From the NCBI GenBank assembly GCA_951406725.2, contig OX597825.1, forward strand, positions 60,450,001 through 60,514,000: a DNA stretch of 64,000 nucleotides, written 5' to 3'. Positions 1-64,000 of the stretch are shown in pieces (within the stretch, counting starts at the first letter, position 1; each line of letters begins with the position of its first letter). The DNA comes from Octopus vulgaris (taxonomy: Eukaryota). Made by a program: the position numbers and the translations under genes. The notes beneath the pieces are model-generated. The model was not told the DNA's origin. It made no database searches and saw only the letters and a program-made list of their open reading frames with translations.

Positions 1-2460
1 CCACCACATCTCTCTGTTTATGCTTATATATTGTGCACGTGCGAGTGTGTATATGCGTGTGCGTGTGTATGTATGAATAATGTTGCTAATGGTAAGCATA
101 AATATATTAATGATATCCCTAAGTATTTGAGTATTTTTCTATTCATAGTTAGGCATCTTACATATAGGTATATGCATATTGATTAGGAATCTCATCCATA
201 ACTACCTCTGTATTTTATGTAGGTTCCATCAAATAATATCATGGAGAATGTATCTAAAGTGTAATTGTCATTTTTATATATCAGATAATACAGATTTTCA
301 AATATGAAATACAAAAGATGAAATAGGCTTAATATCATCCGGGTTGTAATAAACAGATAGATATTCCTTACTGTACCACATGCAATAGCTTAATTTTGTA
401 TAGATTGTATAACAAACGAAAAATATTATTACAGGGAAACAAATGATACTAGATGGTTTTGCTACGCTGATTTCAAATCGATATTTAGATATTTTCTCAT
501 CACAACATTTTTATGCATTTTAATTGTTTTTGATTTGTCGATAATTCATTGATCAATACACACGTAGTTTTGATTCTTTTAAAGAGAAATCGCGGACATA
601 CCATGTGACAATTTTACGTAAATTCCTCAGATCTTCAGATTGCCTCAATCGGACATGCTATTGAAATGCAGATTTGCTTCAGTCAGATTTGTTGTCGCAA
701 GTCAACAGACTATATATCGAAAAATATCGAAAAGCACGACTGAATTTATTGCCTCGGTTATATATTATAGAGCCAGAAGAGCAACATATTTATCGTGTAC
801 AGTACAGTGCAATGTTAACAGCCTGGATAAATGATAAAAGAGAAATCAGTGGCGTTATCATATCTATCATTTCGTGTGAACCCACAACTACCTGAAGTTT
901 TCCTAAGAAAAATCTCGGCTCAAAATTGATATATGTCGTCAATCAACAACTGAGACTCTTGATGAACCTTAAAACCCTTACTATATGCGAAAGCAATTTC
1001 ATCAATTCCACTAGCAATAATTACAGATAATAGACATTCAAATATTTGGATACTGATATGGTAACAACGGTAGCCCCTATATCAAAGATGAACATAATTT
1101 CCCACATCTGATCAATTAAAGTGAAATAATTTGGTGGATAATTTTGTATTTAAATAAGCAACGACAGAGGTGTTCCGGCTTAGATTTCAAGAACAGAATC
1201 TCCTCCAGCCACTTCTTCCTTTTTTGTTTTTATTTCATATCATGATATAAAGCATTCGTTATTTCACATGAAAACTAAAACAACCCCAGCTGTCTCGACA
1301 GAAAACTTTTTTATGTTAATTCATTCTATCAGGTAATACGATTCTATCTTGTGACATATTCTTATTCTCATATCATTTATCTTTTAGCTTACTCCTATAC
1401 ATCCAATCTGGTGACACGATATTGACTCTATCAGGTGACATACATTGACTCATTTTATGAAATTATTCTTTTCAACCGCGTGCCGCTTCTTCTTTGTCTT
1501 ATTCTTTTACACCTTGGACAATTGAATTATAGTCTACTCTTTTACATTTCGTTTTGGAATTATTGTAATATTATTCATTCATGAATAAAATCATTATCTG
1601 AGCCCAATATTGTTATTCGTTCCTATGTTATAACAAAAATTTGTTTCTTCTTTGATAGCAGTGGTCTGGTAGTCGTCTATCTTTTCAAGCAAAAGAAAAA
1701 AAACAATCTCTTTTACTCCCGTATATTGTGTGAGGTACCCAGAATTAAATATTTTCTCATCATTTTGCCGAATGAGTTATATTAGCATTCATCAGCAAAT
1801 GGAATTATTCTGTTTTCTTTCGTCAAGATACTGTAGAATACGTAATATGTTCACAGTAAATAAAGTCGCAGGCAAAAAAAAAAGAACTCTGTCGATGTAT
1901 ATGAAATGTCAGATGAACCGATACAATATCCCTAGGAAGATTAATGATACACAACCTACAGTTCACTGAGTAAGACAGTTTAAAACTAATTATAAAAGAA
2001 CTCAAACTTAGCTGGAGCAACCCTTAATTAAGACCCTATAATTCCCTAAACATTGCATTCGACGTTTTCATCGGTGCGTGCAACAGTAGCACAACAAATA
2101 CATTATAGGAGTAGGTGATGAAACATGTTTGGTGAGTTATCATTTATTATCCCTAAGCTGCCATATTCAGTTTTTCACTTTACGTCTTGAGTTCAAACAG
2201 CACTGAGATCATCGTTGATTTCCATTCATAAGGGATCGATAAAATGAATATAAGTCTTGTTTTCGGCTAAAGTAAACCAACTGTGCGGCCTTGTTAGAAA
2301 CGTACTACTGTTCCAGATCTTTTTACTTTACATTTGCTTATAGGTGTCAACGAGTGTGCCATTACCAGGAAATCTAATATGTCAGGCAAACAAATTTGGG
2401 ATATCTGTGATTAGGAGATAAAATGAATCGTACTATAGAAGTACTTTATTTTGCCCATCT

Positions 2461-2662
2461 CTGGCATTCCATCAGTTACGACGACGAGGGCTCTACTTGA
2501 TCCGATGAACGGAACACCCTACTCATGAAATTAACGTGTAAGTAGCTGAGCACTCTACAGATACGCGTGCCCTTAACGTAGTTTACAATGAGATTCAGCG
2601 TGACACAGTGTGACAAGGCTGGCCCCTTCGAAATACAGATACTACTCATTATTGTCAGCTGG
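2461..2662 (-). mobile_element. Dispersed SINE-like repeat (third family), partial
   Basis: GC-richer block ctggcattccatcagttacgacgacgaggg...cagcgtgacacagtgtgacaaggctggcccc. Decayed homologues occur at ~10700-10860 and ~30870-31050. Orientation and SINE class are inferred. Confidence 0.5.
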
Positions 2663-2989
2663 AAAATGTAAAATTAAGAAATCTTGGCTTCATTGGATCT
2701 CAGAAATTCATAGAGAATAGCTATGCATTTTTCCAACACATTGTTCACTATGATAGAATTATTGCAATCAGTAAAATATAATTTCTCAGTTCAATTAGCA
2801 ATATACGACACTAATGATATTATGTTCAGACAGTTTTAATGATCAACTTCATAACCAAGCTAGTGCTGATTTCATTATCAATATTGCAGACATCATTTCA
2901 TTTCCAAACTGTAACACATTAATTATAGTATTACGTCCCGAGGATAGTTTCAAATTATGGCTCAATGTTCCAATACTCACCTTTTACTT

Positions 2990-3045
2990 ATCTTATCGAC
3001 TCCGAAAGGATGAAAGGGAAAATGGACCTCGGCGGAGCTTCATAA
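2990..3045 (-). mobile_element. Fragment of Meta-domain-like SINE
   Basis: ttatcgactccgaaaggatgaaagggaaaatggacctcggcgga matches the central part of the SINE at 50171-50400. Confidence 0.55.
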
Positions 3046-3836
3046 CAATACGTCAGCATAAAATATACTAGAAATGATGGTATTGTGAGAAAACAATGGT
3101 ATTGTGAGAAAAAGAACAACAAATTGATCTGTGTTCTCCAGATACAATGGGTTAGTTGTACAGTAAATATTTTAAACAATTCCGAGGATTCTCTATCAGA
3201 TGTTCCCGGTTGAAGATATGCTCAAATACGTACATATATGGAATACATGACCGAAATAGATCAGCTGTAATGAAGAGCAGACACTTGTTTAATAACGTGA
3301 TATGCATATCAGTCACACGTGTACAAGTTCATCCACAAAACAGACACGCATATATATACATACATTCATACATGTGCACATCAGTTAATTCGCATAAGTA
3401 CAAAAGCCTACAGCTGTTTTGACTTGAAGAAAGGAACCATGTTACTTTGATAACGACCGACTTAAATTCTACAAAGGATTAAATTTAAATCACTCCGAAA
3501 GATATGTCTTACCCATTTAGATGAGAAGTGTTTTATGGGCAAGACAATGTGGTAATGACTTCGTCATGTGTACATGTACTTCGCTGCGTAAATTATACCT
3601 CTGCATAAGCGATGCTATAATCACATACCTCTGTCTTACGATGCATGCAATCAGGATTTCTACTGACATAACGTAGCAACGCAACATAGGTGTCATATCA
3701 CGTAAACATATATTTTCTTTCGATAATGCATTGTACACGAACCTAACATTGACATCACGAAATAATAAAGAACCGCATGAACACGACAGTAATAATACGT
3801 TGCTCTACAATGCTGCACAGCATATCTGGAAAGACG

Positions 3837-3838
<2 letters not shown>

Positions 3839-3895
<57 letters not shown>

Positions 3896-3945
3896 TACCT
3901 ATATATATACATGTATATATATATATATATGTATGTATATATTAT
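3839..3945. repeat. (AT)n microsatellite
   Basis: Direct reading. Confidence 0.95.
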
Positions 3946-4209
3946 GCATTTATGTATTGGAAATGACTAATGAAAATCATGTAATTATACTAGACCCGTC
4001 CATTATTTATTGCCATGAATATAGTTGAATAAATATATTATTACGTACTTGGGATAGGAAATATGGATGAATTCCAAGCATTCATTTTATGTGTTTATAA
4101 TGAAAACAAATTGATATGTTGGAGGAATAACTAAAACACATCTAATAGACATATCTCGTTATTTACCCGCAAACAAGACACATCATGCACATACACACTT
4201 CTGCACATA

Positions 4210-4260
4210 TGTAGTTATGTATATATGTATATATGTATGCATGTACGCATGCGTATATGC

Positions 4261-4296
<36 letters not shown>

Positions 4297-4314
4297 GTGT
4301 GTATGTGTGTATGT

Positions 4315-4345
<31 letters not shown>

Positions 4346-4510
4346 GATATATATAGAGAGAGAGAGAGAAAGAGAGAGAGAGGGAGATGTTTGCTTGTAT
4401 ATGCAAACACAAATATAAGTATACGTATATGAATATGTATATATATGTATATTTACATACATATATATATGCATATATGTTTATATGCATGTATATATAT
4501 ATACACACAC
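4210..4510. repeat. Compound microsatellite (AT)n/(GT)n/(GATA)n/(GA)n
   Basis: Direct reading. Confidence 0.95.
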
Positions 4511-4802
4511 ATAGAATGAGAGTGATGGTAAATAATAACCACGTTATCATATAGCGTTAGAAGTAATCTGTAATCTTTAACAAATCACTTCTAACTCGTA
4601 TGTTGAGCGTAGCCACATAAATGCAAAATAAACACATAAACGCATGCAGAATAAACTCATAAAGGCATGCATACACACGTACACACGTGCATACATATAT
4701 AAATATATGCACCTGCATGTACCTATAATGTATCTATATGAATGCATACATACGTATCTTTATGTATCATATATTTGAGCATCTATGTAGTTCAATGCAA
4801 AT

Positions 4803-4844
<42 letters not shown>

Positions 4845-5703
4845 ACTGTTAAAATAATAAGGGTAGAAAATTTAGAGAAATTCTCCTTGCAGTGGCCAGC
4901 ATGCGTAATAAAGTCAATAGACGACATATTTTTCATATACAATGGTGTACAAATAATTTACCTACTTATACACAAAAGAGGTGGCCTTTAACAGGACATG
5001 TTACTTGCTAGAAAGGGCAGTTAAAACCCAAACTGCGAGTAGGAGTAATTTCAGAGGGAATGAAAATTAAAATATTTTTGTAGGTACACTTAGACTCGAG
5101 TTTCTGCATCAATGTGCAAATACATTCATTTTTCATCCTTGCTTTTACACTAAGGGCACTAATATTAAAGCATATTTATGCAGCACCGAAAATGCACGTG
5201 CTACATACTTACACATTATATTTATCAAATCCAACGCGCAAGCGCAGTTACTTTCGGCAGCAAATAGTACGAAATTGCTTCGAAACTACGGAAATTTTAC
5301 TGTGAAAATAATAAGGGTAGAAAATTTAGAGAAATTTCCCTACCGGTGGCTAGCATGCGTAATAAAGTCAATAGAAATATATTTTTTTATATAAAATAGT
5401 GTAAAAATAGTGGATTTGAAAATTATAAAGTATAAGTATGTAACATATGTATTTTCGGTGCTGCTTAAATAGGCATTAATTTTGGCGCACTTACCGAAAA
5501 AGCACGGATGACAAATTACTATATTTGCTCACTGATGCACAGACTCGAGTCTTAGGGTAACTACAAAAATATTTTTATTTTCATTCCCTTTGAAATTACA
5601 TTACTCTTTTTCGTGGTTGAGCTTTAACTGATCACTCTAGTATGTAAGGTGTCCTGTTAAAGGTCTCTTCCTTTATGTATAAATGCATAAATTATTCATA
5701 CAC

Positions 5704-5712
<9 letters not shown>
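4845..5712. mobile_element. Non-coding element with a 454-bp-period direct repeat plus an inverted copy (Penelope pLTR / retrozyme-like)
   Basis: aaaataataagggtagaaaatttagagaaatt occurs at 4851 and 5305. ~5410-5712 is the diverged reverse complement of ~4930-5235. Both ends abut (AT)n. Confidence 0.65.
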
Positions 5713-5736
<24 letters not shown>

Positions 5737-5739
5737 GTG

Positions 5740-7090
5740 GCTTCCCCCCCGTTATTGTGTTTGAAATGGAGGCTTATAAGGCCGAGATTAGTTTCGGTTA
5801 AGACATTTGCTATTTTGCTTTTAAGTTTAGTATCACAAGTATAGAATATTCTTCATCGGAATCCGCTTAATTCTAGAGCCTGGTTATAGTAAGTAGCGTG
5901 GGTATTAAATATTTCTTCATTCGCTGATAATTAGAAATTCTTATTGGAATGCCTGTAATTACGCTGACAAGGGTTATTGTAGGATGATTTGAAAGGACGT
6001 TTATATAATGCAAAGTTTGGTAAGGCTTTTGAAATGGGTAATATAAATTTGTATTTAAATTGAGTTTGAGATCCCCAAAATTTAGCACCTTGGTATTTGT
6101 TTACGAGCAACAATCAATGCTTTGTCTAAGAGAATCGGCGATATCGATGCATAGTATCAATATAAAACTGATATAACAAACTGAATAATATTAATACGGT
6201 TTTTATCCTTGAGGGAATAAAAACCAGTTAATGACATCGTCTGTTGAGTTCCAAAGAGGGAGCGCAACATTAGCTCTAACACGTTCTATTATACATTTAC
6301 TAATTTTGTCTAAATCTGACTTTGTGGGACAGATGAGTCGGGTGGAGAGGAAATTAAACTTGAGGTCTTTCAGGGTAAAATTAAGTATTTGGGGTTCATA
6401 TTGTTCAGTTCTGTTTAATAATTTCAGATCTACGATAAGCTAATAATGTGTATTATTAGTGTTTAGCTTTTTTAATATTAAATTGTTGTATGTTTCCAAA
6501 AGTAAAGAAAAGAGGTTGCCAGTTTTATCGAAGAAAACATGTAGATTTGGCGAAGATTATATTTCTGATATAGTTTTGGGAAGCTCATTCTAGAATGAGT
6601 TAGTGTAGTTAGAAAAGTTTAAGTTTTTAATCACACGCATAAGATCCTTCTCAAAATTTGCTAACAGAGGAATTGGAGGCGGGTTTTTATACGATTTCTG
6701 GTTGTACGTATTCTATTCTATTAATGGATTCATTCGTCTTCTAAAATAGGGCTTCTATAAATGTATTCCATGATGGAATTGGGATATTTTTAGCAGAGAT
6801 GCCTAAGAATAGTTTCTACCTTGGTTTCGTCAATCTGCAGGACTCTATCAAGCAAATTGTATATGATCATAATGAAAAAATATTTCCTATATAACGTTGC
6901 TTTTACAGAGAATGAAAAAATAGTTTTACCATTCCATAGCAAAACCGTTGTACTACACTTTAATAATGTTTGCCATCTTGGCATCTGAAGCAGCTGGATA
7001 TATGATAATTTGGCAAAAAGAACCGGCTATTACAAGCAAAAATAAATATTGAAAAAAGAAACCGCATTAGAGCAAATTTGGACATACGAG
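5740..7090 (-). pseudogene. Decayed Penelope-like element reverse transcriptase (Penelope/Poseidon type)
   Basis: ORF 5873-6088 YYPFQKPYQTLHYINVLSNHPTITLVSVITGIPIRISN resembles the PLE RT thumb motif (Y.P..KP.....YI...SNHP......IP..I..R.S). A degenerate R-Y-R-D-like motif lies near 6130-6150. Frameshifted; outer limits approximate. Confidence 0.7.
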
Positions 7091-7108
7091 AGTTTAATTT
7101 AATAGCAA

Positions 7109-7180
<72 letters not shown>

Positions 7181-7196
7181 GAAAGTTTACGAAAAT

Positions 7197-7235
<39 letters not shown>
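7109..7235. repeat. (AT)n microsatellite interrupted by a short insert (aagggaaagtttacgaaaataaaa)
   Basis: Direct reading. Confidence 0.9.
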
Positions 7236-7238
<3 letters not shown>

Positions 7239-7472
7239 AACATACTATGTTCCCTCTTAAACATTTCAACATTCTAGTCCTATATCTATCCTATATCTCT
7301 TTCTTCCACATCCCCTCTTTTTTTTGTCTAAGAACTCTAATCGATTCTACTCCTACATATATGACCTCTTTCTTTCCTTTTCATCTTGACTATTCCATTT
7401 CTTCTATCATTTATCTCTCTGAATTTGTATTGCAAGATTCCTGATGTGAAATCATACGCTGAAACAGATAGC

Positions 7473-7872
7473 GTTGTATTTAGGTATAGGCATTCTTTTG
7501 GAAAATAAACACACGCACTATATATTCGTTCTTCACTCGTTTATTACTGCTCTTATGCTAACTCATGTCCATTATCCTGAAATCATTAGTCACACATCTG
7601 TTACCTCTTCAGCAACACTTTCCACCCGCGTGTATTCTGTTTTTCTATAATGTGTATGCTTATATGCGCATAGAAGAACAGAATGGTTTAAGCGGAGCAG
7701 GAGCACACATGAAGAGGGAAAGTATTACTGAAGAGGTCACAGATGTGTGACAAAAGATTTCCGGCAATGGACATGAGTTAACATAAAAACAGTAATTAGC
7801 GAATGAAGAACGAATATATACTGCGTGTGTTTATTTGTAAAAAAAAAAAAAGACCATTCTGAAATGCAACAA
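7473..7872. repeat. Long imperfect inverted repeat (arms ~7473-7640 and ~7697-7872)
   Basis: aaataaacacacgcactatatattcgttcttca...aactcatgtccatt...gtcacacatctgttacctcttcag is reverse-complemented as ctgaagaggtcacagatgtgtgac...aatggacatgagtt...tgaagaacgaatatatactgcgtgtgtttattt. Confidence 0.85.
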
Positions 7873-9356
7873 TATTTATATTTTTATTCTGTATAATTGT
7901 GTACGCATGGGTACGCCAAATTATTTGTTTACTGTTGACATAGTAAAGAGACCCCAGCTTAATATTCACAGTAACTGTCTGCCCTTTGTACGATTCATCA
8001 CTCCTAACTATTTGACGTCTCCCTTCACTTTTCTTACTTACCTACCATTTTATTTCTTGGGTTCCCAGCGAGAAGGTAAGCTTCGTTTAATTGAGGTATA
8101 TTCGGCCTGATCAGTAGCTAGTTGAGTATCCCTCTTTGTGATATTATTATATCGGAAGATCTGCTAGCTAGAAAACATATGTACGCTGCATTTTACATGT
8201 TTCACTCCCGTAATTTGGATCTTAATTTGCGTTCATAGCAACTCTAGTTGATAGCCGTGGGTTATACAAATATGTTTTCAACTTATCGAACTTCGGCCTA
8301 CAAACCTCGACGCCAATGAATAGTTTTTGACTTGTTTTTCATACCTACCACAGAATGCTCGAAGCTTACAGACTTCCTACACTTAGATTCTTGGATGTTA
8401 CCCACACAGACACACACACGTATATATATATATATACACATATATATTAATCTATATTTTTGTTACTTTTCATTTGTCTTGCTCGCTTACGCTTCTGGTG
8501 TTTGCTAAATTTTCTAGAGAACAATTCTTAGTGGTTAAGACCATAGCAGATCTTCTTCTAGCGTAAGGGTTTCCATATTCCCTCTTATATATATATGTAA
8601 TATATATATATATATGTATATATATAGGTGTGATTTTATATGCATACTTTTATTATACATGTATACATATGTATTTGTGTATATATTTCCTACAAATTTA
8701 CGTATATCTATGAATTACAAATTACTTTGCAGATAATTAGTGAAACTACTTTTGTCGATATGTGGTGGAAGGGGCAATAGTTTGTACGCCGTCACAGATA
8801 AAAGCATTTATCGTAGTAAACCAAATATTCACATCTCTGAATTGCCAAAGTCAACCTAAGATGCAAGACAAACAAAACAAATATACGTAAATCTGACATA
8901 TGCAAATAGTACAATCAGTGTAATTATTGACGTCAGCGTTTAATTAAAATCTAATAGAAATTACATTTTGTATTGTAATTGTTGTCCGTCGAATGTCTTT
9001 GTTATGTAGATGGACTACACGTAAAGGAAATGTTTCATTAACATAATTAACCTGAATGTTTAGTTGTCCCCAGTGTGGAAAGATATATATGTGTGTATGT
9101 TTGCGTGAGTCTTTGTCTTGCGTTTGTTCCCCAGAACAGTTTGATAGGCAGGTTGGCTTTGCCTACGTTCCTGTATTCTATATATGTAGATATATTGAGA
9201 TTGTCCTCCTCTGTTTGCTTCGCCGTTGGGGTCTAGATCTTGCTGTTTAGTCGTGTTTAGTCAGGGACTAAACGCACACACAAACACACACACGCACAAA
9301 CATATACACATATATATGTACATATAGACATAGAACGGCGAAGAGACGGGTGTGTA

Positions 9357-9720
9357 CGGCGCAAGAGTGGCTGTATGGCAAGTAGCTTGCTTACTATCCC
9401 CATGACAACTTGGACAAGTGTCTTCTACTATAGCCTCAGGCCGACCAAACCTTGTAAGTGGATTTGGTAGAGAGAAACTGAAAGAAGCTTGTCGTATATA
9501 TGTATATATATATGTATGAATATATGTGTTTATGTTTGTGTGTCTGTGTTTGTTCCCCCAACATCGCTTGACAACCGATGGTGGTGTATACGTCCCTGTA
9601 ACTTAGATACCGATAAAATAAGTACTAGGCTTACAAAGAATAAGTCCTGGGGTCGATTTTCTCGACTAAAGGCGGTGCTCCAGCATGGCTGGTGTCGAAG
9701 GACCGAAACAAATAAAAAAG
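9357..9720 (+). mobile_element. tRNA-derived CORE-like SINE (octopus type)
   Basis: Head ggcgcaagagtggctgtatgg, CORE-like ttggacaagtgtcttctactatagcctc, internal (TA/TG)n, tail ggcggtgctccagcatggc. Homologous to copies at 18140-18528 and 40166-40594. Confidence 0.85.
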
Positions 9721-9767
<47 letters not shown>

Positions 9768-9768
9768 C

Positions 9769-9816
<48 letters not shown>

Positions 9817-10197
9817 TACGCGTGTGTACGTCTTACATGAATCTAGCATAGAAAATAGTTTGTAACTTTATAAGAAAGCGCAGCTTCTTCAATTGCAACT
9901 CTGAGTTTCACGTTGCCTATTATTCGAGCGGTAAGTAACGTGAAGTAGCATACCAATATGGCATTAAATCTGTTCGTAATTAATCAATAAGTTGTTAAAA
10001 AATGATTATTTGCTGAACAACCGCTATGTAGTCTTCCAGTCATCCAACCGTGTAATAGTCACCCGCAGCACACGTGTTAAAATTCCTCTACTAACATGTA
10101 AAACCTCTTGATACTTTCATGACTTCAGTATCATATGTGTAAATCCCACTAAATTAAAGATTGTTTTATTACTAAATGACGTTTAATTTTTTTTATT

Positions 10198-10280
10198 ATT
10201 TCATCTAGTTTCAGCTCACGTGCTGTGGCCATATCGTGCACCACCATTTGGTGTTGCTACATAATTTTACTTCACGAATA
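10198..10280 (-). mobile_element. 3' UTR fragment of the CR1-like LINE
   Basis: Reverse complement matches 56482-56565 (tattcgtgaagtaaaattatgtagcaacaccaaatgg...gagctgaaactagatga). Confidence 0.85.
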
Positions 10281-11260
10281 AATAAGTTAACTTTTTCTTG
10301 CTAAAAAATGTATTTCACAATATGACAGATACATTATTTGGGAAATATATTATTTTTAGGATTTAGGCGGAATTCTCATAGATTTTGTGGGGACTATTAC
10401 GTAGAGATAGACCAGTCAGATATTTATGCGTTCGTTCATTTAAAGTGACTTTAAAATGTAATATTCAAGTGTTAAGACATCACTCATGTCTTCTAGTACA
10501 AATATTACAAGTTCTATCTTGTGTATAACATCTCAGTTTAAGAATATTTTGTAAAAAGCATATGTTAGTTATTTTAACCGTATGCCTTCCCAATCTGCAG
10601 CTGTTGTATGTATGCCGTTGTTAGGGTTTAGTTCTCGGTCAGCTAAGTTTCAGGGGCCTATGATTGAACGCAATTCCACCTCGAAAATTCAGTGACTTGC
10701 TGTAAACCTGCGGCATACAACTGTGATTGTACGTTGATCAACGAAATGTTTGACTTGTTAAATTAATGAACGAGTTAACAAGTATCTCGCAAATACGTGT
10801 ACCGTTAGCGTGATTCCTAAACCGAATCCACATAAGACAATGAGTGATGTGAGGGGATTATAAATTACAAATGAAATCCACTCGAAAGGCTTCCACATAG
10901 TTTCTATTAGCTTAAAATTGTTTCAAAACGACCCAATCGAACCAAGGTCATATAAAAACCACTTGCATAACATACTGCACAGTAGAATCGAGTCAAAACT
11001 GCAAAATTACTTAAAGCTTTAACTACATTCTCGTCAGCTTTTAAAGACATAATATATTCTAGATTACGACGTTACTAAAGTTTACTCTCTTTTTATGATG
11101 GTGGTATAAATCGAATGAAATTCCGGCTGCTATCTCTAGTGAGTCGAACAAACATGAAAATATATCTTACTGACACGATGTTTGTGTACGCGTATGACTT
11201 GCTGTGCACGTGTGTATAAGTTTTGCGTATATATTGCCCGTATACTTTTTGTGCTATATA

Positions 11261-19090: not shown

Positions 19091-19510
19091 AAGGCGGCGA
19101 GCTGGTAGAATCGTTAGCACGCTGGACGAAATGCTTTGCGGTATTTCGTCTGCCGCTACGTTCTGAGTTTAAATTCCGCCGAGGTCGACTTTGCCTTTCA
19201 TCCTTTCGGGGTCGATTAAATAAGTACCCGTTACGCACGGGGATCGATATAATCGACTTAATCCGTTTGTCTGTCCATGTTTGTCCCCTCTGTGTTTAGT
19301 CCCTTGTGGGTAGTAAAGAAATAGGTATTTTGTCTGTCTTTATGTTCTGAGTTCAAATTCTGCCGAGGTCGACTTTGCCTTTCATCCTTTCGGGGTCGAT
19401 AAATTAAGTACCAGTTACGCACTGAGGTCAATATAATCAACTTAATCCCTCTGTCTGTCCTTGTTTGTCCCCTCTATGTTTAGCCCCTTGTGGGCAATAA
19501 ACAAATAAGA
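19091..19510 (+). mobile_element. Meta-domain-like tRNA SINE, head-to-tail dimer
   Basis: Head aggcggcgagctggtagaatcgttagcac, box-B-like gagtttaaattcc, central gactttgcctttcatcctttcggggtcgat. A second unit starts at ~19324. agaatatattcgcct is duplicated at 19054-19068 and 19508-19522. Confidence 0.9.
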
Positions 19511-26819: not shown

Positions 26820-27660
26820 TAAAATGAGACAACAGAACCAAGGTTGTGTGGAATTTTCAGGCAATTTATAAGGAGAAAGTAAGTCTTACAGCTGTTTCAG
26901 GGATATTAGGGATATTCCTTCATCAAAGACGATGTGACATGGTTAAATAGAGGGAAATATTTGCGTTCAATATCAGGAGTTATTTTGGCAAAGGATGGAA
27001 ATAAGAAGTATAAAAGAAAATAAGAGAATAAAAGAATAAATATATATGTAGGACGTTATAGCTGCGGTTCCACTGTCCAAGGAAAGTGGTGTGTAGAAGT
27101 GGTAGCAATGCTTCTTGTCTGTGGTATGTAAATTCCGATAGGAGTTCATATTTTGACATTACCAATGGAAAGTGTGGAGACATTGATTCCATATGCTTCG
27201 CATTCAAAGGGGTCTTGTGGTGTGAAAGAAATTTTGAGAATGTTGTGGTAGTATTAAGTAGATAGAGAGTAGAGAAAAGATATGTAAAAATGATGAAAAC
27301 GGAGTCAACGGAAGGCTCGGAGAATGGTGCGTTGTAGAGGCAGAGTAGCGGGGTGGTAGGTGAGGGGAAACGAGAGACTAGTAACGGCGAGGTGGGTGCG
27401 GGGAGAGAGACAGATGTAGGATTCACAAAACATGCTCTGGCAAGGGCAGTGTGGTTATTGGTGAGGAGATATCCAGGAAGGATGAAGTGGCGAGCTATGT
27501 GTTGAGACAGTCTCAAAGTCATGGTCGTCACTTTAGAGCCTGCGCTGTCGGAGGAATTGGACGGAGAGACGGGGAGCTTGGTGTGGTTAGAGTGGGAGGA
27601 GGAGAAGTTGAGGTATAAGTGTAAGTTGGTGTGTTTGTAGTGGATGGAGGTGGTGTACGT
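26820..27660 (-). pseudogene. Decayed Penelope-like element: RT C-terminus plus pLTR with hammerhead
   Basis: Minus-strand frames give TSIHYKHT...YLNFSSSHSNHTK...QFLRQRRL*SDDHDFE...HFILPGY...TALARA, matching the PLE RT thumb/linker (Y.KPT....YL...S.HP......SQFLR.RR.CS...F...F..RGYP). Confidence 0.75.
26883..26930 (-). ncRNA. Type I hammerhead ribozyme with C3>U core change
   Basis: Reverse complement GTCT TTGATGA AGG-aatatccctaatatc-CCT GAAACAGCTGTA AGAC. Helix I GTCT/AGAC, palindromic ACAGCTGT, GUA triplet. Confidence 0.7.
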
Positions 27661-30351: not shown

Positions 30352-30869
30352 TTGAATATAAAATTACTAAAATAATTCTCTTCTTTAAAAATAGATACAA
30401 AGACCTGGTAGAAGTGGGAATTGCGCCCAGCACTGTATGAGGAGGGGAGATAATCCGAGACTCAAGCAGGCTCCTAAATAAATGTAACTCCTTACAATAT
30501 CCATTTATTCATCTATAAATTTCGTTTTCATGGGTTTGACAACTTGAGGTTTTGATAGAATTAACCTTCCCAAATTGTTGTGGAATCGAACTCGGTAACG
30601 TGTGGATGTGAAGGGAACATCTTAAGCACATGGACATACTTGAACCTTGTAACTCACACATTCTTTTCTGTCGTTCAGAAATAGCAAGAAATTCTGTTTC
30701 CGATAACGTACTACTGTTTTTAAAAAACACATTAGTCAATATATTGATAGATACAGATCAGAAATAGAAAAGATGGTGTGGTGAAAACTTGGAAGATCTA
30801 TGGTATTAGGGCTTTTATTCACATTTAAGAAAGTAATTTAACATATATTCATTCCCAAAGATGAAGCCG

Positions 30870-31050
30870 TGGTGCTGAAACACCGTCAGTTGACGAGGAG
30901 GAATTAGTTGTTCATCTAAGTGAATTACCTGCACTTGAAGGTGTATGTGGTTGAACATATCCAACACGTGTAACTTTAATGCAACGCTCAGGTAGAATCA
31001 GCGCGACACAGTGTCTGCCAAGGTTGCATCTTTTGAATTTCAGATAAGGG
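30870..31050 (-). mobile_element. Decayed copy of the third SINE-like family
   Basis: ccgtcagttgacgaggagg...aatcagcgcgacacagtgtctgccaagg aligns by eye with 2461-2662. Confidence 0.45.
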
Positions 31051-31289
31051 CCTCTCTTGAGGGACTTCTATACAGTTTTCCATGGTCGAATCCAGGATCT
31101 CGTGCTTCTAAAGAGAACTTCGCATCCACCCAAGTTGAGTGCACCTATAGTGCCGTAATTACAAGTAAGTAAATTATTGGTAATATATAGATTCATGTAT
31201 CTTTTATAACTGATCAAATGGAAAACAAAACTGTATAAATACATAGAATATCATGCAAAATTAGCTAAAAATTCTAAATTTCTGTTAAA

Positions 31290-31830
31290 ACTTTCAAGTT
31301 TAAGAACACAGAGCGCTTGTGTCACGTAACCAACTGGAAACGGTGTTTCCTGGGGCTAAATAGCAGTATCAGTCTTCCCTTTCCTGGGACTGCCACATTA
31401 AGTTGGCAACAAACCATCACTTTATCTTGCTGCTACTGTATAAGTCTCTCTGAGAGATTTAGAAATGTAATATTTCTAATTTTGTAGATCAGTGAATTCA
31501 TTTCACTTGAAATTCTATACCTTTGCAACAGCGAACAAGCATCGTCAGTTAGCAAGCCAAGGTACTCCAGACTGATGAAGAGCAATAACTTTGAAATTAG
31601 TCTCTGAAAGCTGGATTTGCTGGGTGGAGGTACTCCCCTGTTTGAAAACTTAAGGACACAGAACGCATGTGTTACATAGCCAACTGGAAACGGTGTTTCC
31701 TGGGGCTAAATTGCAGTAGCATTGTTCCCTTTTCTGGGACTGCCACATTAAGTTGGCAACAAGCCATCACTTTATCGTGCTCCTACTGTATTAGTCTCTG
31801 TGAGAGATTTAGAAATGCAATATTTCTAAC
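31290..31830 (+). mobile_element. 350-bp-period tandem repeat (~1.5 units) carrying a hammerhead: non-LTR retrozyme-like element
   Basis: caactggaaacggtgtttcctggggctaaat occurs at 31331 and 31681. ~180 bp is duplicated (31300-31480 vs 31650-31830) with the HHR between the copies. Confidence 0.7.
31549..31623 (+). ncRNA. Type I hammerhead ribozyme with extended helix I
   Basis: CAGA CTGATGA AGAG-caataa-CTTT GAAA TTAG TC TCTG (31568-31606). Distal pairing ttagcaag/tttgctgg and cca/tgg extends helix I. GUC triplet. Confidence 0.8.
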
Positions 31831-32072
31831 TATTATTAATATTTTTTAAAAAATTTAGGTTCTGTTGGAATTCCTGGAGTCTTGCTCGCGTAGCGAGCTT
31901 GCTGCCCTCAGCCTACGGTACCATTTTATCTGTTCTTTTCAACTATCTAGTACTTTCCTTATTATTCTGGCAATGCCAAGGAAGCAAACGTTTTGCAACA
32001 GTTCTACTGGGCACTCTATTCCGATTTCCTCTAGATTCCTCTTGATGCCTTCTGAAACTGCCCCCAGCGCCC
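31830..32072 (-). pseudogene. 3' end of an R4/Dong-like RLE non-LTR retrotransposon
   Basis: ALGAVSEGIKRNLEEIGIECPVELLQNVCFLGIARIIRKVLDS* matches the RLE C-terminus (GALG.V...L..IG......LQK..LLGTARI.RKVL). A short 3' UTR ends in TAA-like repeats. Confidence 0.8.
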
Positions 32073-32300
32073 GGCGGCGAGCTGGCAGTATCTTTAGCAC
32101 GCCGGGCGAAATACTTAGTGGCATTTTGTCCGTCTTCCCGTTCTGAGTTTAAATTCCACCGTAGTCGAGTTTACTCTTCATCCTTTTCAGGTTGATAAAA
32201 TAAGTACCAGTTGAAAACTATGGTCGATGTTATCGACTCACCCCCTACCCTAAAGTTCCTGCCCTTGTGGCAAAATTTGAAACCATTATTATTATTATTT
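32073..32300 (+). mobile_element. Meta-domain-like SINE (alternative tail)
   Basis: ggcggcgagctggcagtatctttagcacgccgggcgaaat...gcccttgtggcaaaatttgaaaccattattattatt. Confidence 0.85.
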
Positions 32301-32997
32301 TGTCTTACAACAATGTAAATTAACATATAATGAATAATATTTAAATTTTCTATTTCCTCCACGAGAATTGTAGAAATGTGAGCGTTATCTGTTTTCGACT
32401 TTTTTTCAATAAACCAGAAGTCTGAGTGGTTTCACACGAATTCAGAATAGCAAATAATATGAGTATTATATTACAATCTTGCGATAAGCAATATCGTGAG
32501 CATGGCTGTTTCAAATATCTTACCATTAAATCGCATCTTTTCAGTCTTCGTAGAAACATCTCAGAGAAAATGAGTTGTAGTAGATATAAGATACTCCATT
32601 TTATGTATGTATATTATTTCCATGTTTTTGTTTCACAACATATTTTCGGTTGATCGAAATATCCATGTAGTCAACTTATCGTGAAGATAAACATATCTGT
32701 TGAAAGGAAAAAAAATCTTAAAAGATGTGGGCTGTGAATGAGAAACATAGATACAAGTTTATTCTCGTATATATACATACACAGGCATACATCGCACGTC
32801 CTTATATATATTTATATATATATATATATATGTGTGTGTGTATGTTACCGTTTGCATATATGTAACACGCGTTAGAAAGACATTAGAAATATGAAATATA
32901 ACAACTTTAGAATATGTATATATATATATTCTTTAGAATATATATATATAAGTGTGTGTGTATATGTGTGTGCGTGGGTGCGTGCTTGTATATATGC

Positions 32998-33020
32998 AGA
33001 GAGAGCGAGAGAGAGAGGGA

Positions 33021-44287: not shown

Positions 44288-45384
44288 GTACGTATGAATA
44301 TACGTATACATGTGTGTTATTTTTGTACTTAGCGTATTTAGAAAATTACGCGAATAAGAGGTCGCACTGAGAGACTGGCAGACAGACAGTTAGACATATA
44401 GATAGGTATATAGATAAACAGATAGATGTACAGAGGTGAGAGAAACAGACAGAGGGATGGTTAGATATGTTTGAGTGATACTCAAATGCTTGTAATTGTG
44501 TAGTAACTCTTTGATTCCGATTTTAAGAAAACTATGCAATTCATTATAATGATCTAAAAAGGAATTTGGAATCGAGTCTTTAGAAGTAATTTATATAATA
44601 GGGGAAATTTAGTTACTAACTTTAAAATGTGTACTTTGTCGTAGAACATATATTTTTGAAGTGCCCAGAGTTTCTGCTTTTATGAAACAAAACCGTGTAT
44701 ATACATATATATATTAGTAAAATATTTGAAAGAACCAGTTTGTCAATATGTTCTATACAGTTACTGAGAGGAATAGGGGTTGTTTTGAAGTATATGAGCA
44801 GAAATCACGATTAATGACGATCAAATCTTTGTAGATTTGATGATCCAAGATGTTTGAAATTCACATATGAAAATTTTCTTTTCTTTTCATATTTCATGAA
44901 AAAGTGTGCATCGTTAGTGTGTACATGAATACATAAGGTTCTAGTACCCGGCTTTCTATTGATGTTTTGAAATATTGCTATGTAATTATACGTGTGTTAT
45001 CTATTCCATAAAATAAATACAAAATGTTCGACCAATGATTTGTAGTTCATATTTTCTGAGGCTTCGAAGAAACATATTAGATCGTTCAAACTATTGGAAC
45101 AAAGCTACTGCAACAAAATTAGATTTAGAAATTAACAAATAAGATTATATACAATTCTTCGTAAAACGGAGAGTATTAAAAAAGACATTATGAACATAGC
45201 AGATTATGGACATTGTTGGTTTTTTTATTTAACCCCAGCGTAAACTGCTTCTATCAGACCTCTGATCGGTATCGTTACAGCAAGAAGAATTACTTATTGA
45301 GTCAGTGATAATGTATATGGCTCTACGTAATATTTTTTTTACTGAAGGCAAAAGAGCTGAAAATCAACAAGAAGGCGTCAGCCA

Positions 45385-46395
45385 TATCATCAATCCCAGT
45401 GTACAAAATGTACTTATTTTATCGACCCTGAAATGATGAGAGTCAACGTCGACCCCAGTAGAATATGAAACCACACCGTAAAGCCTGAACTTATGCTGCT
45501 ATGTATTCTGACGGCACCGTAACAATTCTGCCAGCTCACTACTTTCACCACTCTGTACTATAATGATTTCAAATCTTCGTACAGGACCAGCAGTTTTGGA
45601 TGAGAGAGGAAGGCGATTAAATCCCACTTCCTATTTGCCTGGTACTTATTGTATTGACCCCGAAAGAACGAAAGGCAATGTAAATCTCGGTGAAATTTGA
45701 ACTTACTACTAAAAGATGGAAGAAATAACTGCTAAACATTTTCTCCGACATGCTAACTGGCCTATCAGCTTGCTGCATTAACTACCTATGTAATAATGAT
45801 TTCCAGTTTTGGCACAAGGGTAGCAATTTTAGGGGAGGGGTTTACATCGACCCCAGTGTTCAAGTGGTACTTATGCCATCGACCCCGAAACGATGAAAGC
45901 AAAGTCAAACTCAAAACGTAAAGACAAATTAAGTGCCGGTAAGCATTTTTCCCGGCGTGCTCACCGCCACCTCACCGCCTTACATCTATATAATAATGAT
46001 TTCAAATTTTTGCTACAAGGGCAGCTTGTGGGAGGGGATTAAATCGATTACATGGACCCCTGTGCGTAACTGGTACTTAATTTAACGAGCCCTAAAGGAT
46101 GAAAGGCAAAGTCGACCTCGGCGGAATTTGAACTCAGAACGTAGCGACAGACGAAGTACCTATTTCTTTACTACCCACAAGGGGCTAAACACAGAGAGGA
46201 CAAACAAGGATAGACAAACGGATTAAGTCGATTACATCGACCCCAGTGCGTAACTGGTACTTATTTAATCGACCCCGAAAGGATGAAAGGCAAAGTCGAC
46301 CTCGGCGGAATTTGAACTCAGAACGTAACGGCAGGCGAAATACCGCAACGCATTTCGCCCGGTGTGCAAACGTTTCTGCCAGCTCACCGCCTTCT
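45385..46395 (-). mobile_element. Head-to-tail array of about five Meta-domain-like SINE units
   Basis: The atcgaccc(c)gaaa.gatgaaaggcaaagtc module recurs at ~45420, 45655, 45880, 46085 and 46270. Units are separated by taatgatttc(a/c)a tails. Confidence 0.85.
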
Positions 46396-46418
46396 AGAAG
46401 TAAGATATTACCGAATAA

Positions 46419-46635
46419 AAGGCGGTGAATTGGCAGAATGGTCACCAGGCCAGTAAAAATGCCTTGCGATATTTCGTCCGTCTTCACAATTTAAGTTCAA
46501 ATACGTCAGAGGTCGACGTTGTAGGTTATCTTTTCGGGGTCGATAAAATTCGTCAGAGTTGAGAACAGGGGTTAATGTAATCGTCTAGGCCCTGCCCCGA
46601 AACTTCTGGCCTTGTGCCATAATTTGAAATCAATA
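46419..46635 (+). mobile_element. Meta-domain-like SINE, inverted relative to the upstream array
   Basis: aaggcggtgaattggcagaatg...aagttcaaat...ttcggggtcgataaaat...ctggccttgtgccataatttgaaatc. Confidence 0.8.
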
Positions 46636-46877
46636 TGTTACAAAATGGGTCATTGTTCTTTCTTTTCTGCGTTACTCCTTTCTTCATGTTTTCAAGGTGA
46701 GTATATTGTTTAAGGGTGATTCGTCACCTATTTCTGTCAGTTGCTGTGACGATCGGAGTTATAATGTATCGAAGAAACATGTTTTTCAAACGTATGACTG
46801 GTTTCTCACTTACGTGTTAACCACCCTTGTAGCTATCTAGGATTGGCAGCTTAATTGATATTTCCTAAATATATATA

Positions 46878-47680: not shown

Positions 47681-50170
47681 ATATAAATTTTTATATATCT
47701 ATTGCAGTGAGTCAATAACTCATATCGGTCTAATTATAGCTATAGTATTGGTGACATCTTCGTAAATTTCTGTATGTATGTGTTATGTAAATATATGTGG
47801 AGAAGGAATTGTTGTATTATATCCGATATGATGCTAGATATGACACTAGATATCTTAGAATAACTCTTGTGTAAATATTGTATATAGAAAAGTCAGCTAA
47901 CAATAGTTTACACTTTTCTATTCTGTCTCAGATAGCAAAACCGTAACACAGTTGAGAAAGGTTGCGAAAATTTTGTGAGAATTTCTGAAAAACGCATAAA
48001 ATATTCGTAACATATATCTTCACTCACAATCTGCACAGAAATATGCTATATAATTCAACGGTGAGTAAATCTATGTTGAAAATTGATTTGACATTCCTTT
48101 CGTTGGTATTTATCATATTTAAAACCCTCGAGGTGTATTGTTAAATATTTACAAGACGTTCAATGAAAAGGAATGAGAATCATTTGACAGATGCCAATTT
48201 CAAATCGTTAATTCTGACAATCATGTTTTCGTAACCTTTGCCATTGACGAAGTTATTTGATTAAATGTAAGATGTTTTTAATTCAGTGACCATTACGGTT
48301 TGTACATTTACTTACAAATATTTCAAAATTCTCAAAATATGCCACCTCTGTTTCTCTCATAAGAGTTGAAATATCAATTATAAAGGATTGTCCATTAACG
48401 GAGTGTGCAATGACGTTGATGAAAGTATGACCGAGATATATGTCTTATTTTAAATTGGTTTCAACCTCTCAACTGTATCTATTCGAGAACATTCGCAATG
48501 ATATCATCTATTGTGATGTTATAAATGCCAGACTTCTTTGTTTATGAATTTGTGCTGTGTGTCTTTAAGAGAATGCAGTATTAAAACCGTAGTAATAAGA
48601 ATGAAAACAATGTATAATAACTTCCATCGTTATATCATCATATACGTCGTATATTAAAAACTGAAATCACTCTATAATATAATCTCGTATGTGGAGTATA
48701 ATCTTGGAAGAAATAGTTCTTAAGTCTCTAAAATCATACCATAAAAAGGACATAATCTAAGATGATGTATTCCTAGATAATTTGAATTAGATAGATAGAG
48801 AGGGAGAGACAGAAAAAGAGAGAGAGAGAGTGGGGGAAGTGGTCAGGACTTGGATCGTCCTTCAGGACTTGCCTCGTCGAAATAACGTCAACACAGAGCA
48901 GAATCGATATCAATAAGGACGATGATGATGATTATAGCAGTCGAGAACCTCACAATTTTATATATAAGATGCACGGCTAAAAACGTATATAGTCGTAGGT
49001 TGAGTTGTTCATCGCTGATGTAGGCCTAATCAAACAAAGCCGCAAAGACATAAACAGGTATGTGGAGGAAAACTACATGTGATTGCTAAATGTTTGAATA
49101 ATATCAACCAAATCACTTGTGTTGCAAAAATTAAATGTGCATAACATAAGATACAGTACGTATGAAAATTAAAGACGAGATTTTCTATATGGTCAGAGTT
49201 TTAGTAGGAGCTAACCATCAACAATAACAGGAACACTAAAGGTTTAAAGATAAACACAGTTATTCAAATAGAAAGGATATCATTCATTCATCAGTATCAG
49301 CCAGTTATATCCGATCCATCACAAACGCTAAAGGTTACTTGTAGCGTTCACAGTTCACCAGTTCACCAGAATGTTCGCTTCCTTTACATCTATCATTGAA
49401 ATTGATTCGGCTGATAATTTTCTGTGCACCAAGTTTTCATGATTAAACACTGAAATTATTTAATGCATTCAGTGGCTTAACACCTCGTTAAATTAATTTG
49501 TGGTGCCGAAAATTTACGTATTTGATGAGCTGACGTTTTAGATGACGGCATGTTGTTTCTGGCAGAGTTAATTTACAACAAATTTTAGAGTAGAAAAACA
49601 AAAATGAAACAAAAGAAGCAAGAATATAAAAAAATAACGAAAAAAGACATGAATTTCGTCTCCTTAGTTACTGTTCAGAAACGTCTTGTTCCTGAAAAAG
49701 CAATATGAGCTAAATTTGTAACGTGGATAGCTAGTACTCATTTCAAATAATAAGCTCACACTAGATTTATAACGATTAAAGAGAGAAACAAATATCAAAG
49801 TGATAATATTCCTTGATGCTGCAACAATCTCTAGGTGTCAATGGATACATGGGTTCTGAGCTTGTAGAATGCGTCAATTAAGAGTGCATTCTATCACAGT
49901 ACTAAGATTTCCTAAGTAAACTAGGCAGATTCTTAATCTATTACGAGCTTCCAAACTAAAATTTTATGTGTGTGTGTATGCGTGTGCATGTGTTCGTGTG
50001 TGCGCGCATGATTCACACGCCTATTTCTATATATCTTTCTCACACTTCCGAGGTTACCTGCCGGATTTCATATCTAAAAGCGTGAATTATTAGTGGTTTC
50101 CATGATTTAATAAAAATTCAGCAAGAGTAGATACCGTCGATGAAACGACACAATTTCAACACTATTTATA

Positions 50171-61803: not shown

Positions 61804-63020
61804 TAAAATTATTTTAATTACGTATTCTCTTAAGCAAAAACTTTTTGTCCTGGTTGTGTGTGGAGTTTATGAATGAATTATTCAATATGTAGAAAATTTT
61901 AAGGGGTAGTAATTGGTGATCGCTATCATTGTGGACAGGGGAGATGACTTTTCATCTTTCGGTTGGTAAGGGGCAAATACACAAAAATTCAAAAGCTAGG
62001 GTAGTGGGGAGAAATATGTAGTGATGGGTATGTATTCGTGAATTAAAATATTTATAGAGACGTGTTATGTATATTTCGATGAATAAATTTTCTTTATTGA
62101 AACGTTCCTGTATATGATTAAATTTTCTTTATTGAAACGTTCTTGTACTAGTGGAAGGGAAGACCGTGAAATTTGGTTTGACGTTATCTGTACATCTCTT
62201 TATGTGTTCACTTAAAGGAATCTGTCTGTATTGCTGGAGTCGGATCTGCTCCTTGTGTAGAGTGGTTCTCCGTCTCAGTGTCATACTCGTCTGTCCTATA
62301 CAGTTATGTTCACAACCCGAGCAGGTTATTACATAAATTAAATTCTCAGAGGCGCAAGTGAGGTTGGTTTTAATTGTGAACCTCTCTCCTTGTTTGAATA
62401 GGAAATCCGCGCCCCCAAGTAGGTTGGGGCATGTTTCACAGTTTGGGCGTCTACATTTTTTAACCGTTGACTTCGTGGTTGTTCTGTAAAGCCTTGCATT
62501 TGTTAGAAGTCGCTTTAGTGATTTGTGATGCTTTTTCCATTTGATGAATTTATGTATCTTCAGGATGTTGTTCATTTTGGGGGTCTCCAGTTAGTAAAGG
62601 AATATTTTACACAATAGTGTTGTATGCTTCATTGTTTCTAGGGTTGTGAGTTGATATATACAGTAGTATTTTGAGATGAGGTATGGTGTTTTGTTTTGTT
62701 ATCCTTAGTGCTTTTATGCTTAGTTTCTTGGCACGCTTAATTCCATCGTCTATAAGTGAAGGTAGATATTGTCTTTCAGTTAGTGTTGTTCTGAGGTCTT
62801 GAAGACGAAGATCCCATTAGTTCTATCATACACTACTGTGCAGATCCTTTTTGCTAAATTAAAAGGAATATTTCTTTTGATGTGTTTCGAATGGCATGAG
62901 CTAAAAAGGAGTTATTGCTTCGAATCAGTTGGTTTATGATAAATGTCATTTATAATTTGATTGTTGACTTTGTTATCATAATATCCAGAAATGGGAGCTG
63001 TTCTTTGCTATATTCCGTAG
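61800..63020 (-). pseudogene. Neptune-type Penelope-like element: RT C-terminus, Zn-finger and GIY-YIG endonuclease (decayed)
   Basis: ORF 62129-62575 has KSLKRLL..., C-x4-C-x2-C, TCASENLIYVITCSGCEHNCIGQT...LRRR...H. Upstream frames give PFLDI, DIYHKPTDSKQ*LLFSSCHSKHIKRNIPFNLAKRICT. Confidence 0.92.
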
Positions 63021-64000
63021 TTTTCTTTTAAACTGAGCGAGACGTTTAAAGTAAGGAGCGCACACGAGCTAATGTAGCGAATATTTCAGAAATAGATGTT
63101 AAAATGTTATTTTCAACTGAAGATGCCAGACTATGTTGTTCATACAAAGGGTGAAAGCAATTGGTATTGAAATTTACATTGCTTACTGATGTATTCAATG
63201 CAAAGATAAGCCTATTTCTCATATGTTATTTGCATTGCTTGTGTGCATTTTCATCGTGAATTTATGGTGGTTTTCGAGCCCTGGCTCTTTCTTTCAGCAA
63301 GTGGTAATATATACGCTGCTGTATCTAAATTTGCCTATATATGACTTGATACTTTTAATGTATTTCAATATATATAGATATGGAACTTAAAACTACACGA
63401 GCGTATTTGTATCCATACTATCCCTAGAGCTTATAGACATATTTTCTCTAGTAAAACATATTTTTGCTTTATTATAAAAAAGGGAGATTATTAGTTACTC
63501 ACAGTTTGACCTAGTGAAATAATATTGTGACACCGGATTTTAACTTCTCTCGCATCTTCTATGTGAGTAAAACAGTTTTTTGTTCTTTTTTTATATTCCT
63601 AATACTAGCAATATTATAATATTTCTCCGTAATACTTCTAAAAAACATTATCGTAGTATAATATAAACAAACTTTTCATCCCTTCTTTATTGATATTTTC
63701 AGTCCAATTCTTTGTATATTAACACCCCTCATAATTACATTTGTCTTTCTCCCATCTTCCTCCAATAAACTTATAAATATAATTATAAACATATTTTTCA
63801 AATGCATTTGATCTTTTAGCATCATTTCCACGTTCAATATTCGCTAAATTTAAACGATCAATTAATTTCTAATCACATGAACTCCTAATATGGTGTTTTT
63901 TACATTAGAAAATTATAAACGAAACCCTCAAATAAGATATTCCCCAATACAAGACCGGAAAATATACTTACTTTTCCCTGGAGATACTCGGCAATATATT

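Follow-up and report, generated by a model that had tools for sequence, protein, structure and literature searches.

A decayed 1.5-unit insertion of a high-copy, hammerhead-bearing repeat, probably a non-LTR retrozyme family, in octopus

Non-LTR retrozymes have been described in coral, mussel (about 350–390 bp), and axolotl (Cervera and de la Pena 2020, PMC7229834). In the model put forward there, the RNA is cleaved, ligated by a host ligase, and copied over more than one unit by an enzyme that is probably encoded by a Penelope-like element (PLE). The same source describes axolotl HHR_Amex2-type motifs as cleaving better as dimers. The canonical metazoan hammerhead has a helix I of 6 bp, a helix II of 4 bp, and a short palindromic helix III, unlike the minimal hammerheads of PLEs (PMC4209133). 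In the Schistosoma hammerhead, internal loop 1 begins on its 5′ side with U1.7, whose pairing partner is the A at the 3′ end of loop 2 (PMC2632901; PMC11875169). Metazoan retrozymes, as portrayed in PMC7761336, show no motif indicating their helper. A PLE origin has been argued for Xenopus retrozymes, in a study whose invertebrates are three insects and an anthozoan (bioRxiv 2026.07.22.740005). Among the papers listed in literature searches, none is on a cephalopod retrozyme, although the supplement of PMC7229834 may list one.

The locus analysed here (31300–31829) lies within a 64-kb stretch of octopus DNA, referred to as the window, which is AT-rich and microsatellite-rich. It is best explained, with a probability of roughly 0.7, as an old, decayed, single-ribozyme insertion of 1.5 units that belongs to a high-copy 350-bp octopus or cephalopod non-LTR retrozyme family and that likely arose by reverse transcription of circular or multimeric RNA. 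An earlier note had proposed retrozyme-family membership. The proposal stands at the family level, where copy number, the 350-nt unit, 41% GC, canonical type I majority letters, bridged junctions, and an unattached PLE all favour it, but the locus itself, with one decayed hammerhead that is predicted to misfold, is not a convincing source of circular RNA. The evidence on the family comes from contigs of public sequence runs, with alignments from four of them (X1, X7, X16, and X18). X1 matches the left flank without differences and may come from the window's own source; X7 is from another organism. The features are as follows.

31300–31479, plus strand: segment A, first copy, the left end of the insertion (self-alignment; in X1, a jump of summed contig depth from 15 to 10,674 at bin 31298)
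31480–31649, plus strand: segment B, which occurs once and contains the hammerhead (sequence; contig layout)
31551–31621, plus strand: type I hammerhead motif with distal helix I, internal loop, proximal helix I (31566–31571 with 31603–31608), core, and helices II and III (descriptor, pairing)
31572–31578, plus strand: core box CUGAUGA (descriptor)
31579–31592, plus strand: helix II, 4 bp (AGAG/CUUU, with one G–U in this copy), closed by a CAAUAA loop (pair probabilities 0.91–0.95)
31593–31602, plus strand: GAAA (31593–31596), 2-bp helix III AUUAGU (31596–31601), and the GUC ending at C31602, with the predicted cut after 31602 (descriptor)
31650–31829, plus strand: segment A, second copy, the right end of the insertion (self-alignment; an unrelated X1 contig match also ends at 31829)
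31809–31829, and also 31459–31479, plus strand: terminal hairpin of segment A, at whose 3′ base the element ends (sequence, fold, loose ends behind 31478 in 30 X1 contigs)
31655–31711, and also 31302–31361, plus strand: possible relic, with a frameshift, of a PLE GIY-YIG C-terminus (QLETVFP, break, GLN), weak (frameshift-tolerant profile)
31830–32060, minus strand: high-copy neighbour fragment that abuts the repeat and lies outside the element (contig depth, translation)

The note's description of about 1.5 tandem units with a 350-bp period is borne out. Segment A forms a direct repeat (31300–31479 and 31650–31829) with a period of 350 and 91% identity (E 2e-67), and its two 180-bp copies differ at 17 sites. 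Within segment B, 31500–31545 is apparently variable across family contigs. The 350-bp unit has a GC content of 40.9%, and both values are inside the range of non-LTR retrozymes (150–450 bp, GC <50%). In accordance with the note, which saw no convincing ORF, the plus strand of the repeat contains no stop-to-stop frame of at least 90 aa; the minus strand contains one of 90 aa (31433–31705). Judged by these frames and by a translated PLE search, the repeat shares with non-LTR retrozymes the lack of a protein-coding frame. Folded as a 350-nt circle, the unit has no more than a modest advantage over shuffles (z −1.6; five of 100 shuffles equally good). No tRNA gene is found in 30500–33000, and a search for consensus Pol III/snRNA promoter motifs yields one loose A-box-like match and neither a B box nor an octamer.

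The translation of the abutting fragment (31830–32060, minus strand) may resemble the C-terminus of an R4/Dong-type LINE; it matches no Pfam family and has no homolog among 19 candidates. Further downstream, 32073–32290 is a copy of a dispersed SINE-like repeat of ~170–220 bp, which resembles an octopus tRNA-derived SINE, with other copies near 19093, 19324, 22429, 45384–46636, and 50236 (67–80% identical). The left flank contains a low-copy repeat (30884–31067; depth 71–362 in X1, up to 1,029 in X7), inside which 30903–31059 is matched exactly by an X16 contig.

A type I descriptor scan of both strands of the window returns a single match, and none in each of 30 block-shuffled windows. The match agrees with the note in having one hammerhead with an intact core, a 4-bp helix II with a CAAUAA loop, an AUUAGU helix III, and a GUC. 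Rfam hammerhead models give no match to the motif at the gathering threshold and none up to E 10. Among the 18 tabulated helix pairs, 14 are Watson–Crick, two are G–U, and two are mismatched. The note also described a long bulged helix I that could support a tertiary contact, which does not hold for this copy: helix I has a C–A mismatch at pair 5, and position 1.7 (31609) is an A, so the U of the usual loop–loop contact is missing. In the lowest-energy fold the core is predicted to pair with the helix III strand (probability ~1.0), and the best core-open fold lies 9.6 kcal/mol above it. The window copy is thus predicted to misfold, by a program that ignores tertiary contacts, and self-cleavage of its RNA is doubtful. 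A hammerhead-like core on the minus strand at 31548 was rejected; it has no helix I, and the family letter at 31545 breaks its core box.

The locus holds one complete hammerhead, not the two consecutive units with a complete hammerhead in each that define an active retrozyme (bioRxiv 2026.07.22.740005). Because there is only one, the locus would be cut at most once, without release of a monomer or a circle. Judged by its letters, the locus is a decayed, mutated copy of the family. It is very improbable that the hammerhead at this locus has been kept by the host for cutting a local transcript. Such a role would agree with the intact core boxes, and one contig of guessed RNA status matches 30903–31059 exactly, but the window copy carries non-family letters at four helix positions and at U1.7, and its predicted fold, with the core paired to the helix III strand well below the core-open fold in energy, argues against use.

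The family is widespread in the public runs. Twenty of the 24 listed runs contain the stretch or part of it, and 14 DNA-type or unlabelled runs (five organism labels, eight studies) carry 0.23–0.55 of its words. Over the 12 repeat bins, summed contig depth, which does not equal copy number, is 7,036–78,017 in X1 and 13,948–824,318 in X7. The depth of the X1 left flank is 15–32 in 10 of 13 bins and 71–362 in the remaining three. In X1 the hammerhead bins are, on a rough estimate, ~900 times deeper than the single-copy flank, as expected for the many copies of a non-LTR retrozyme. The element is sharply bounded and highly repeated in the X1 and X7 organisms. Contigs bridge segment A to the hammerhead (31450–31648 and 31453–31631) and the hammerhead to segment A (31545–31732 and 31556–31829). 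Since both unit junctions are linked in this way, the head-to-tail arrangement is a property of the family. No two-hammerhead piece is present among the contigs examined, which are short and collapse repeats. An X7 variant contig steps back 226 bases, from 31534 to 31309, with 33 other letters between, and possibly represents a shorter unit or a diverged subfamily. None of the runs listed as carrying the stretch is of RNA type by its label. In two runs guessed to be RNA, contigs do cover the unit but show no excess over the neighbour: the ratio of hammerhead depth to neighbour depth is 0.56 and 0.29, compared with 0.81 and 0.49 in DNA runs; as contig depth cannot measure expression, these ratios count neither way. 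Exact hammerhead patterns have no match in viral contigs, metagenome contigs, or prokaryote genomes, and an 18-base hammerhead pattern hits 32 loci, none of which matches the unit beyond 25 bases or continues as a hammerhead.

Family letters were taken from the X1 and X7 DNA runs. They are drawn from the 40 of 169 difference rows listed, so variation in the core or helices is possible beyond them. The majority letter is C at 31591 (depth 8,422/8,664 in X1; 15,554/15,927 in X7), C at 31597 (6,241/6,461; 10,512/11,386), G at 31607 (3,302/4,932; 23,021/23,122), and C at 31615 (4,362/5,008; 21,989/22,972). Together the majority letters turn all four non-Watson–Crick pairs of the 18 into Watson–Crick pairs, and no listed letter breaks any pair; the support consists of one-sided restorations, not compensatory covariation. 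In addition, the letter at 31609 is T, corresponding to U1.7 (4,566/4,932; 22,859/23,122). The family-majority motif has a 6-bp helix I, a 4-bp helix II, and a 2-bp helix III that is an exact palindrome, ACUAGU, where the window copy reads AUUAGU. Because the majority letters restore the pairs and the U of the tertiary contact, the family carries a canonical retrozyme-type hammerhead of which the window locus is a decayed copy. At the sequence level, therefore, the family has the canonical type I hammerhead of non-LTR retrozymes, and its hammerhead, with the full Schistosoma-type architecture, is a good candidate for an efficient ribozyme.

The family could instead be a satellite-like repeat spread at the DNA level, by unequal crossing over or local duplication, with the hammerhead as a disused inherited relic. 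Most X1 contigs (3,936/4,960, neighbour repeat included) are indeed <95% alike to the stretch, and eight of nine Xenopus dimers reported as tested failed to cleave (bioRxiv 2026.07.22.740005). This explanation is improbable, however: the locus is one dispersed insertion whose edges stand out sharply against unique flanking sequence, and the majority letters in two organisms retain all tabulated pairs and the tertiary U.

The ends of the insertion bear on its template. Of the 17 sites that distinguish the two A copies, nine have a listed family letter that agrees with the other copy (the remaining eight sites are outside the rows listed), as expected if a single insertion produced two identical copies that then diverged. 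The insertion runs across the cut site, and neither end coincides with it. With both ends away from the cut site, we infer that a cleaved linear monomer would have needed a template switch to template the insertion, unlike a circle or an uncut multimer. Behind 31478, 30 X1 contigs continue into unlike AT-rich sequence (median 217 unlike letters, agreement 0.46), and one further X1 contig ends at 31829; both positions lie at the base of the terminal hairpin of segment A. When loose ends are ranked, the one at 31478 falls within the top six in X1 and X16 but outside it in X7 and X18. The right end of the insertion may thus be a preferred end. Target-site duplications of non-LTR retrozymes, where present, exceed 4 bp. 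No convincing one is found at the insertion, where the only matches are AT-rich and 6–7 bases long and the best flank alignment is equalled by 33 of 1000 shuffles. No empty site occurs among the 15 of 100 joints listed, and X7 contigs leave most of the left flank bare.

Under the retrozyme reading, intact tandem copies elsewhere would be transcribed, and their hammerheads, singly or as dimers formed through the palindromic helix III, would cleave after the GUC. Ligation of the 350-nt monomer would then give a circle. A PLE reverse transcriptase/endonuclease, acting as helper, would prime near the hairpin at 31829, and ~530 nt would be copied across the cut/ligation junction, ending at 31300. 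By itself, the locus is an unremarkable, dead copy. With its 1.5 units running over the cut site and its shared 3′ end, the insertion offers a way of testing the proposed rolling-circle copying by PLE machinery on genome data alone.

PLE remnants are present in the window, as the note stated, and neither is attached to the repeat. In a tblastn search with 152 PLE proteins, the nearest matches at E<1e-3 are 27349–27648 (weak, E 4e-4) and 62018–63129, and no RT/GIY-YIG ORF adjoins the repeat. The remnant at 62018–63129 (minus strand) comprises a broken RT end and a GIY-YIG endonuclease (E 7e-98 to P0001), with RVT_1 and GIY-YIG matches both just under the curated cut-offs, and contains a 35-bp tandem duplication (62079–62147). 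One PLE remnant in the window shares 74% identity, along half its length, with an Octopus bimaculoides protein (NCBI), which points to an octopus host. The genome thus contains PLEs, as expected of the host of a non-LTR retrozyme. The RT-like remnant at 27349–27648 (minus strand) is matched by five of the 152 proteins at E<1e-3.

The main rival explanation is that the locus is what remains of the terminus (pseudo-LTR) of a PLE, autonomous or internally deleted, with a canonical hammerhead, in which A-B-A′ is a partial tandem made by template jumping and no free 350-nt circle exists. The shared 3′ end (the 30 X1 contigs with loose ends behind 31478 and the other stop at 31829) would fit such a remnant. 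So would the greater contig depth of segment A than of segment B, which together with the shared 3′ end is also expected of a PLE-type terminal repeat, and the possible endonuclease relic in segment A. In Xenopus, retrozymes match PLE termini, with 24/57 families matching 22 elements, 21 of which are PLEs (bioRxiv 2026.07.22.740005). We nevertheless consider a PLE remnant unlikely. The PLE proteins find nothing nearer than the two remnants at E<1e-3, and after the hammerhead the unit re-enters segment A within 47 nt rather than an ORF, here and in other contigs. Metazoan PLE hammerheads, as described, are mostly minimal with a helix II of 7–8 bp (PMC4209133); the features of the minimal form (helix II of 7–8 bp, bulge before 10.1, short helix I) are absent from the octopus motif. 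The 31478 end, moreover, falls outside the six best loose ends in X7 and X18.

The possible relic is a lead only. By eye, the start of segment A reads QLETVFP, break, GLN, resembling the L-x-T-x-x-P-x-G-L-N ends of eight of the 152 PLE proteins. With a frameshift-tolerant profile of these eight tails, the two A copies rank second and third in the window; the test was chosen post hoc, after the motif had been seen, and the tails were selected for the GLN-type end. The scores are equalled by 10 and 14 of 2000 shuffles, and a microsatellite edge at 48813 scores higher. The GLN frame runs without a stop for ~40 codons, while all eight real tails stop within 13. A search for a natural PLE with such an ending returned only the two query proteins among 51 candidates. 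An upstream part of the relic (W/Y-I) was discarded as unsupported, as it sits in a hairpin that differs in sequence from one family contig to another. Relatives of the 62018–63129 PLE mostly end in P-x-L-N, unlike the possible relic type in the repeat. It is conceivable, though doubtful, that the cephalopod retrozyme descends from a PLE, the unit retaining the frameshifted last GIY-YIG codons and the 3′ UTR, and that insertions end at a fixed hairpin that marks the priming site of the PLE enzyme on the RNA circle. If true, this descent would identify which element acts as helper, and which signal directs priming, for an invertebrate retrozyme.

Given its sequence-level non-LTR retrozyme features, we assign the locus to a probable retrozyme family, though not as an active copy. 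If the assignment holds, cephalopods would join the known hosts of non-LTR retrozymes, with a family common to several related organisms. The closest counterparts, as far as the sources describe them, are the retrozymes of the mussel Mytilus galloprovincialis, which likewise combine a type I hammerhead with a ~350-bp repeat of <50% GC, lack a coding frame, occur in many copies, and reside in a mollusc genome that also contains PLEs (PMC7229834). In contrast to these, the octopus locus has a probable cephalopod host and one hammerhead only; the tertiary-contact bases kept by the octopus family are mostly absent from the mussel motifs presented there. The canonical hammerhead of Schistosoma mansoni also has a 6-bp helix I and an internal loop running from U (in the octopus family majority) to C, and hexaloop 2 runs from C to A in both (CAAUAA in octopus, CAAAUA in Schistosoma mansoni, PMC2632901). 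In octopus, A10.1–U11.1 replaces the usual G–C, and the window copy has an A at 1.7. Axolotl HHR_Amex2/Rtz_353 is alike by description in its ~350-bp unit and 2-bp helix III, the listed difference being the loop III of 2 nt. The minimal hammerheads of PLE pseudo-LTRs share the type I topology, the palindromic helix III, and the partial-tandem layout, whereas the octopus motif has a 4-bp helix II without a bulged base, a long helix I, and no attached ORF (PMC4209133). In the classification outlined for Xenopus, the window locus would correspond to the solo class (bioRxiv 2026.07.22.740005).
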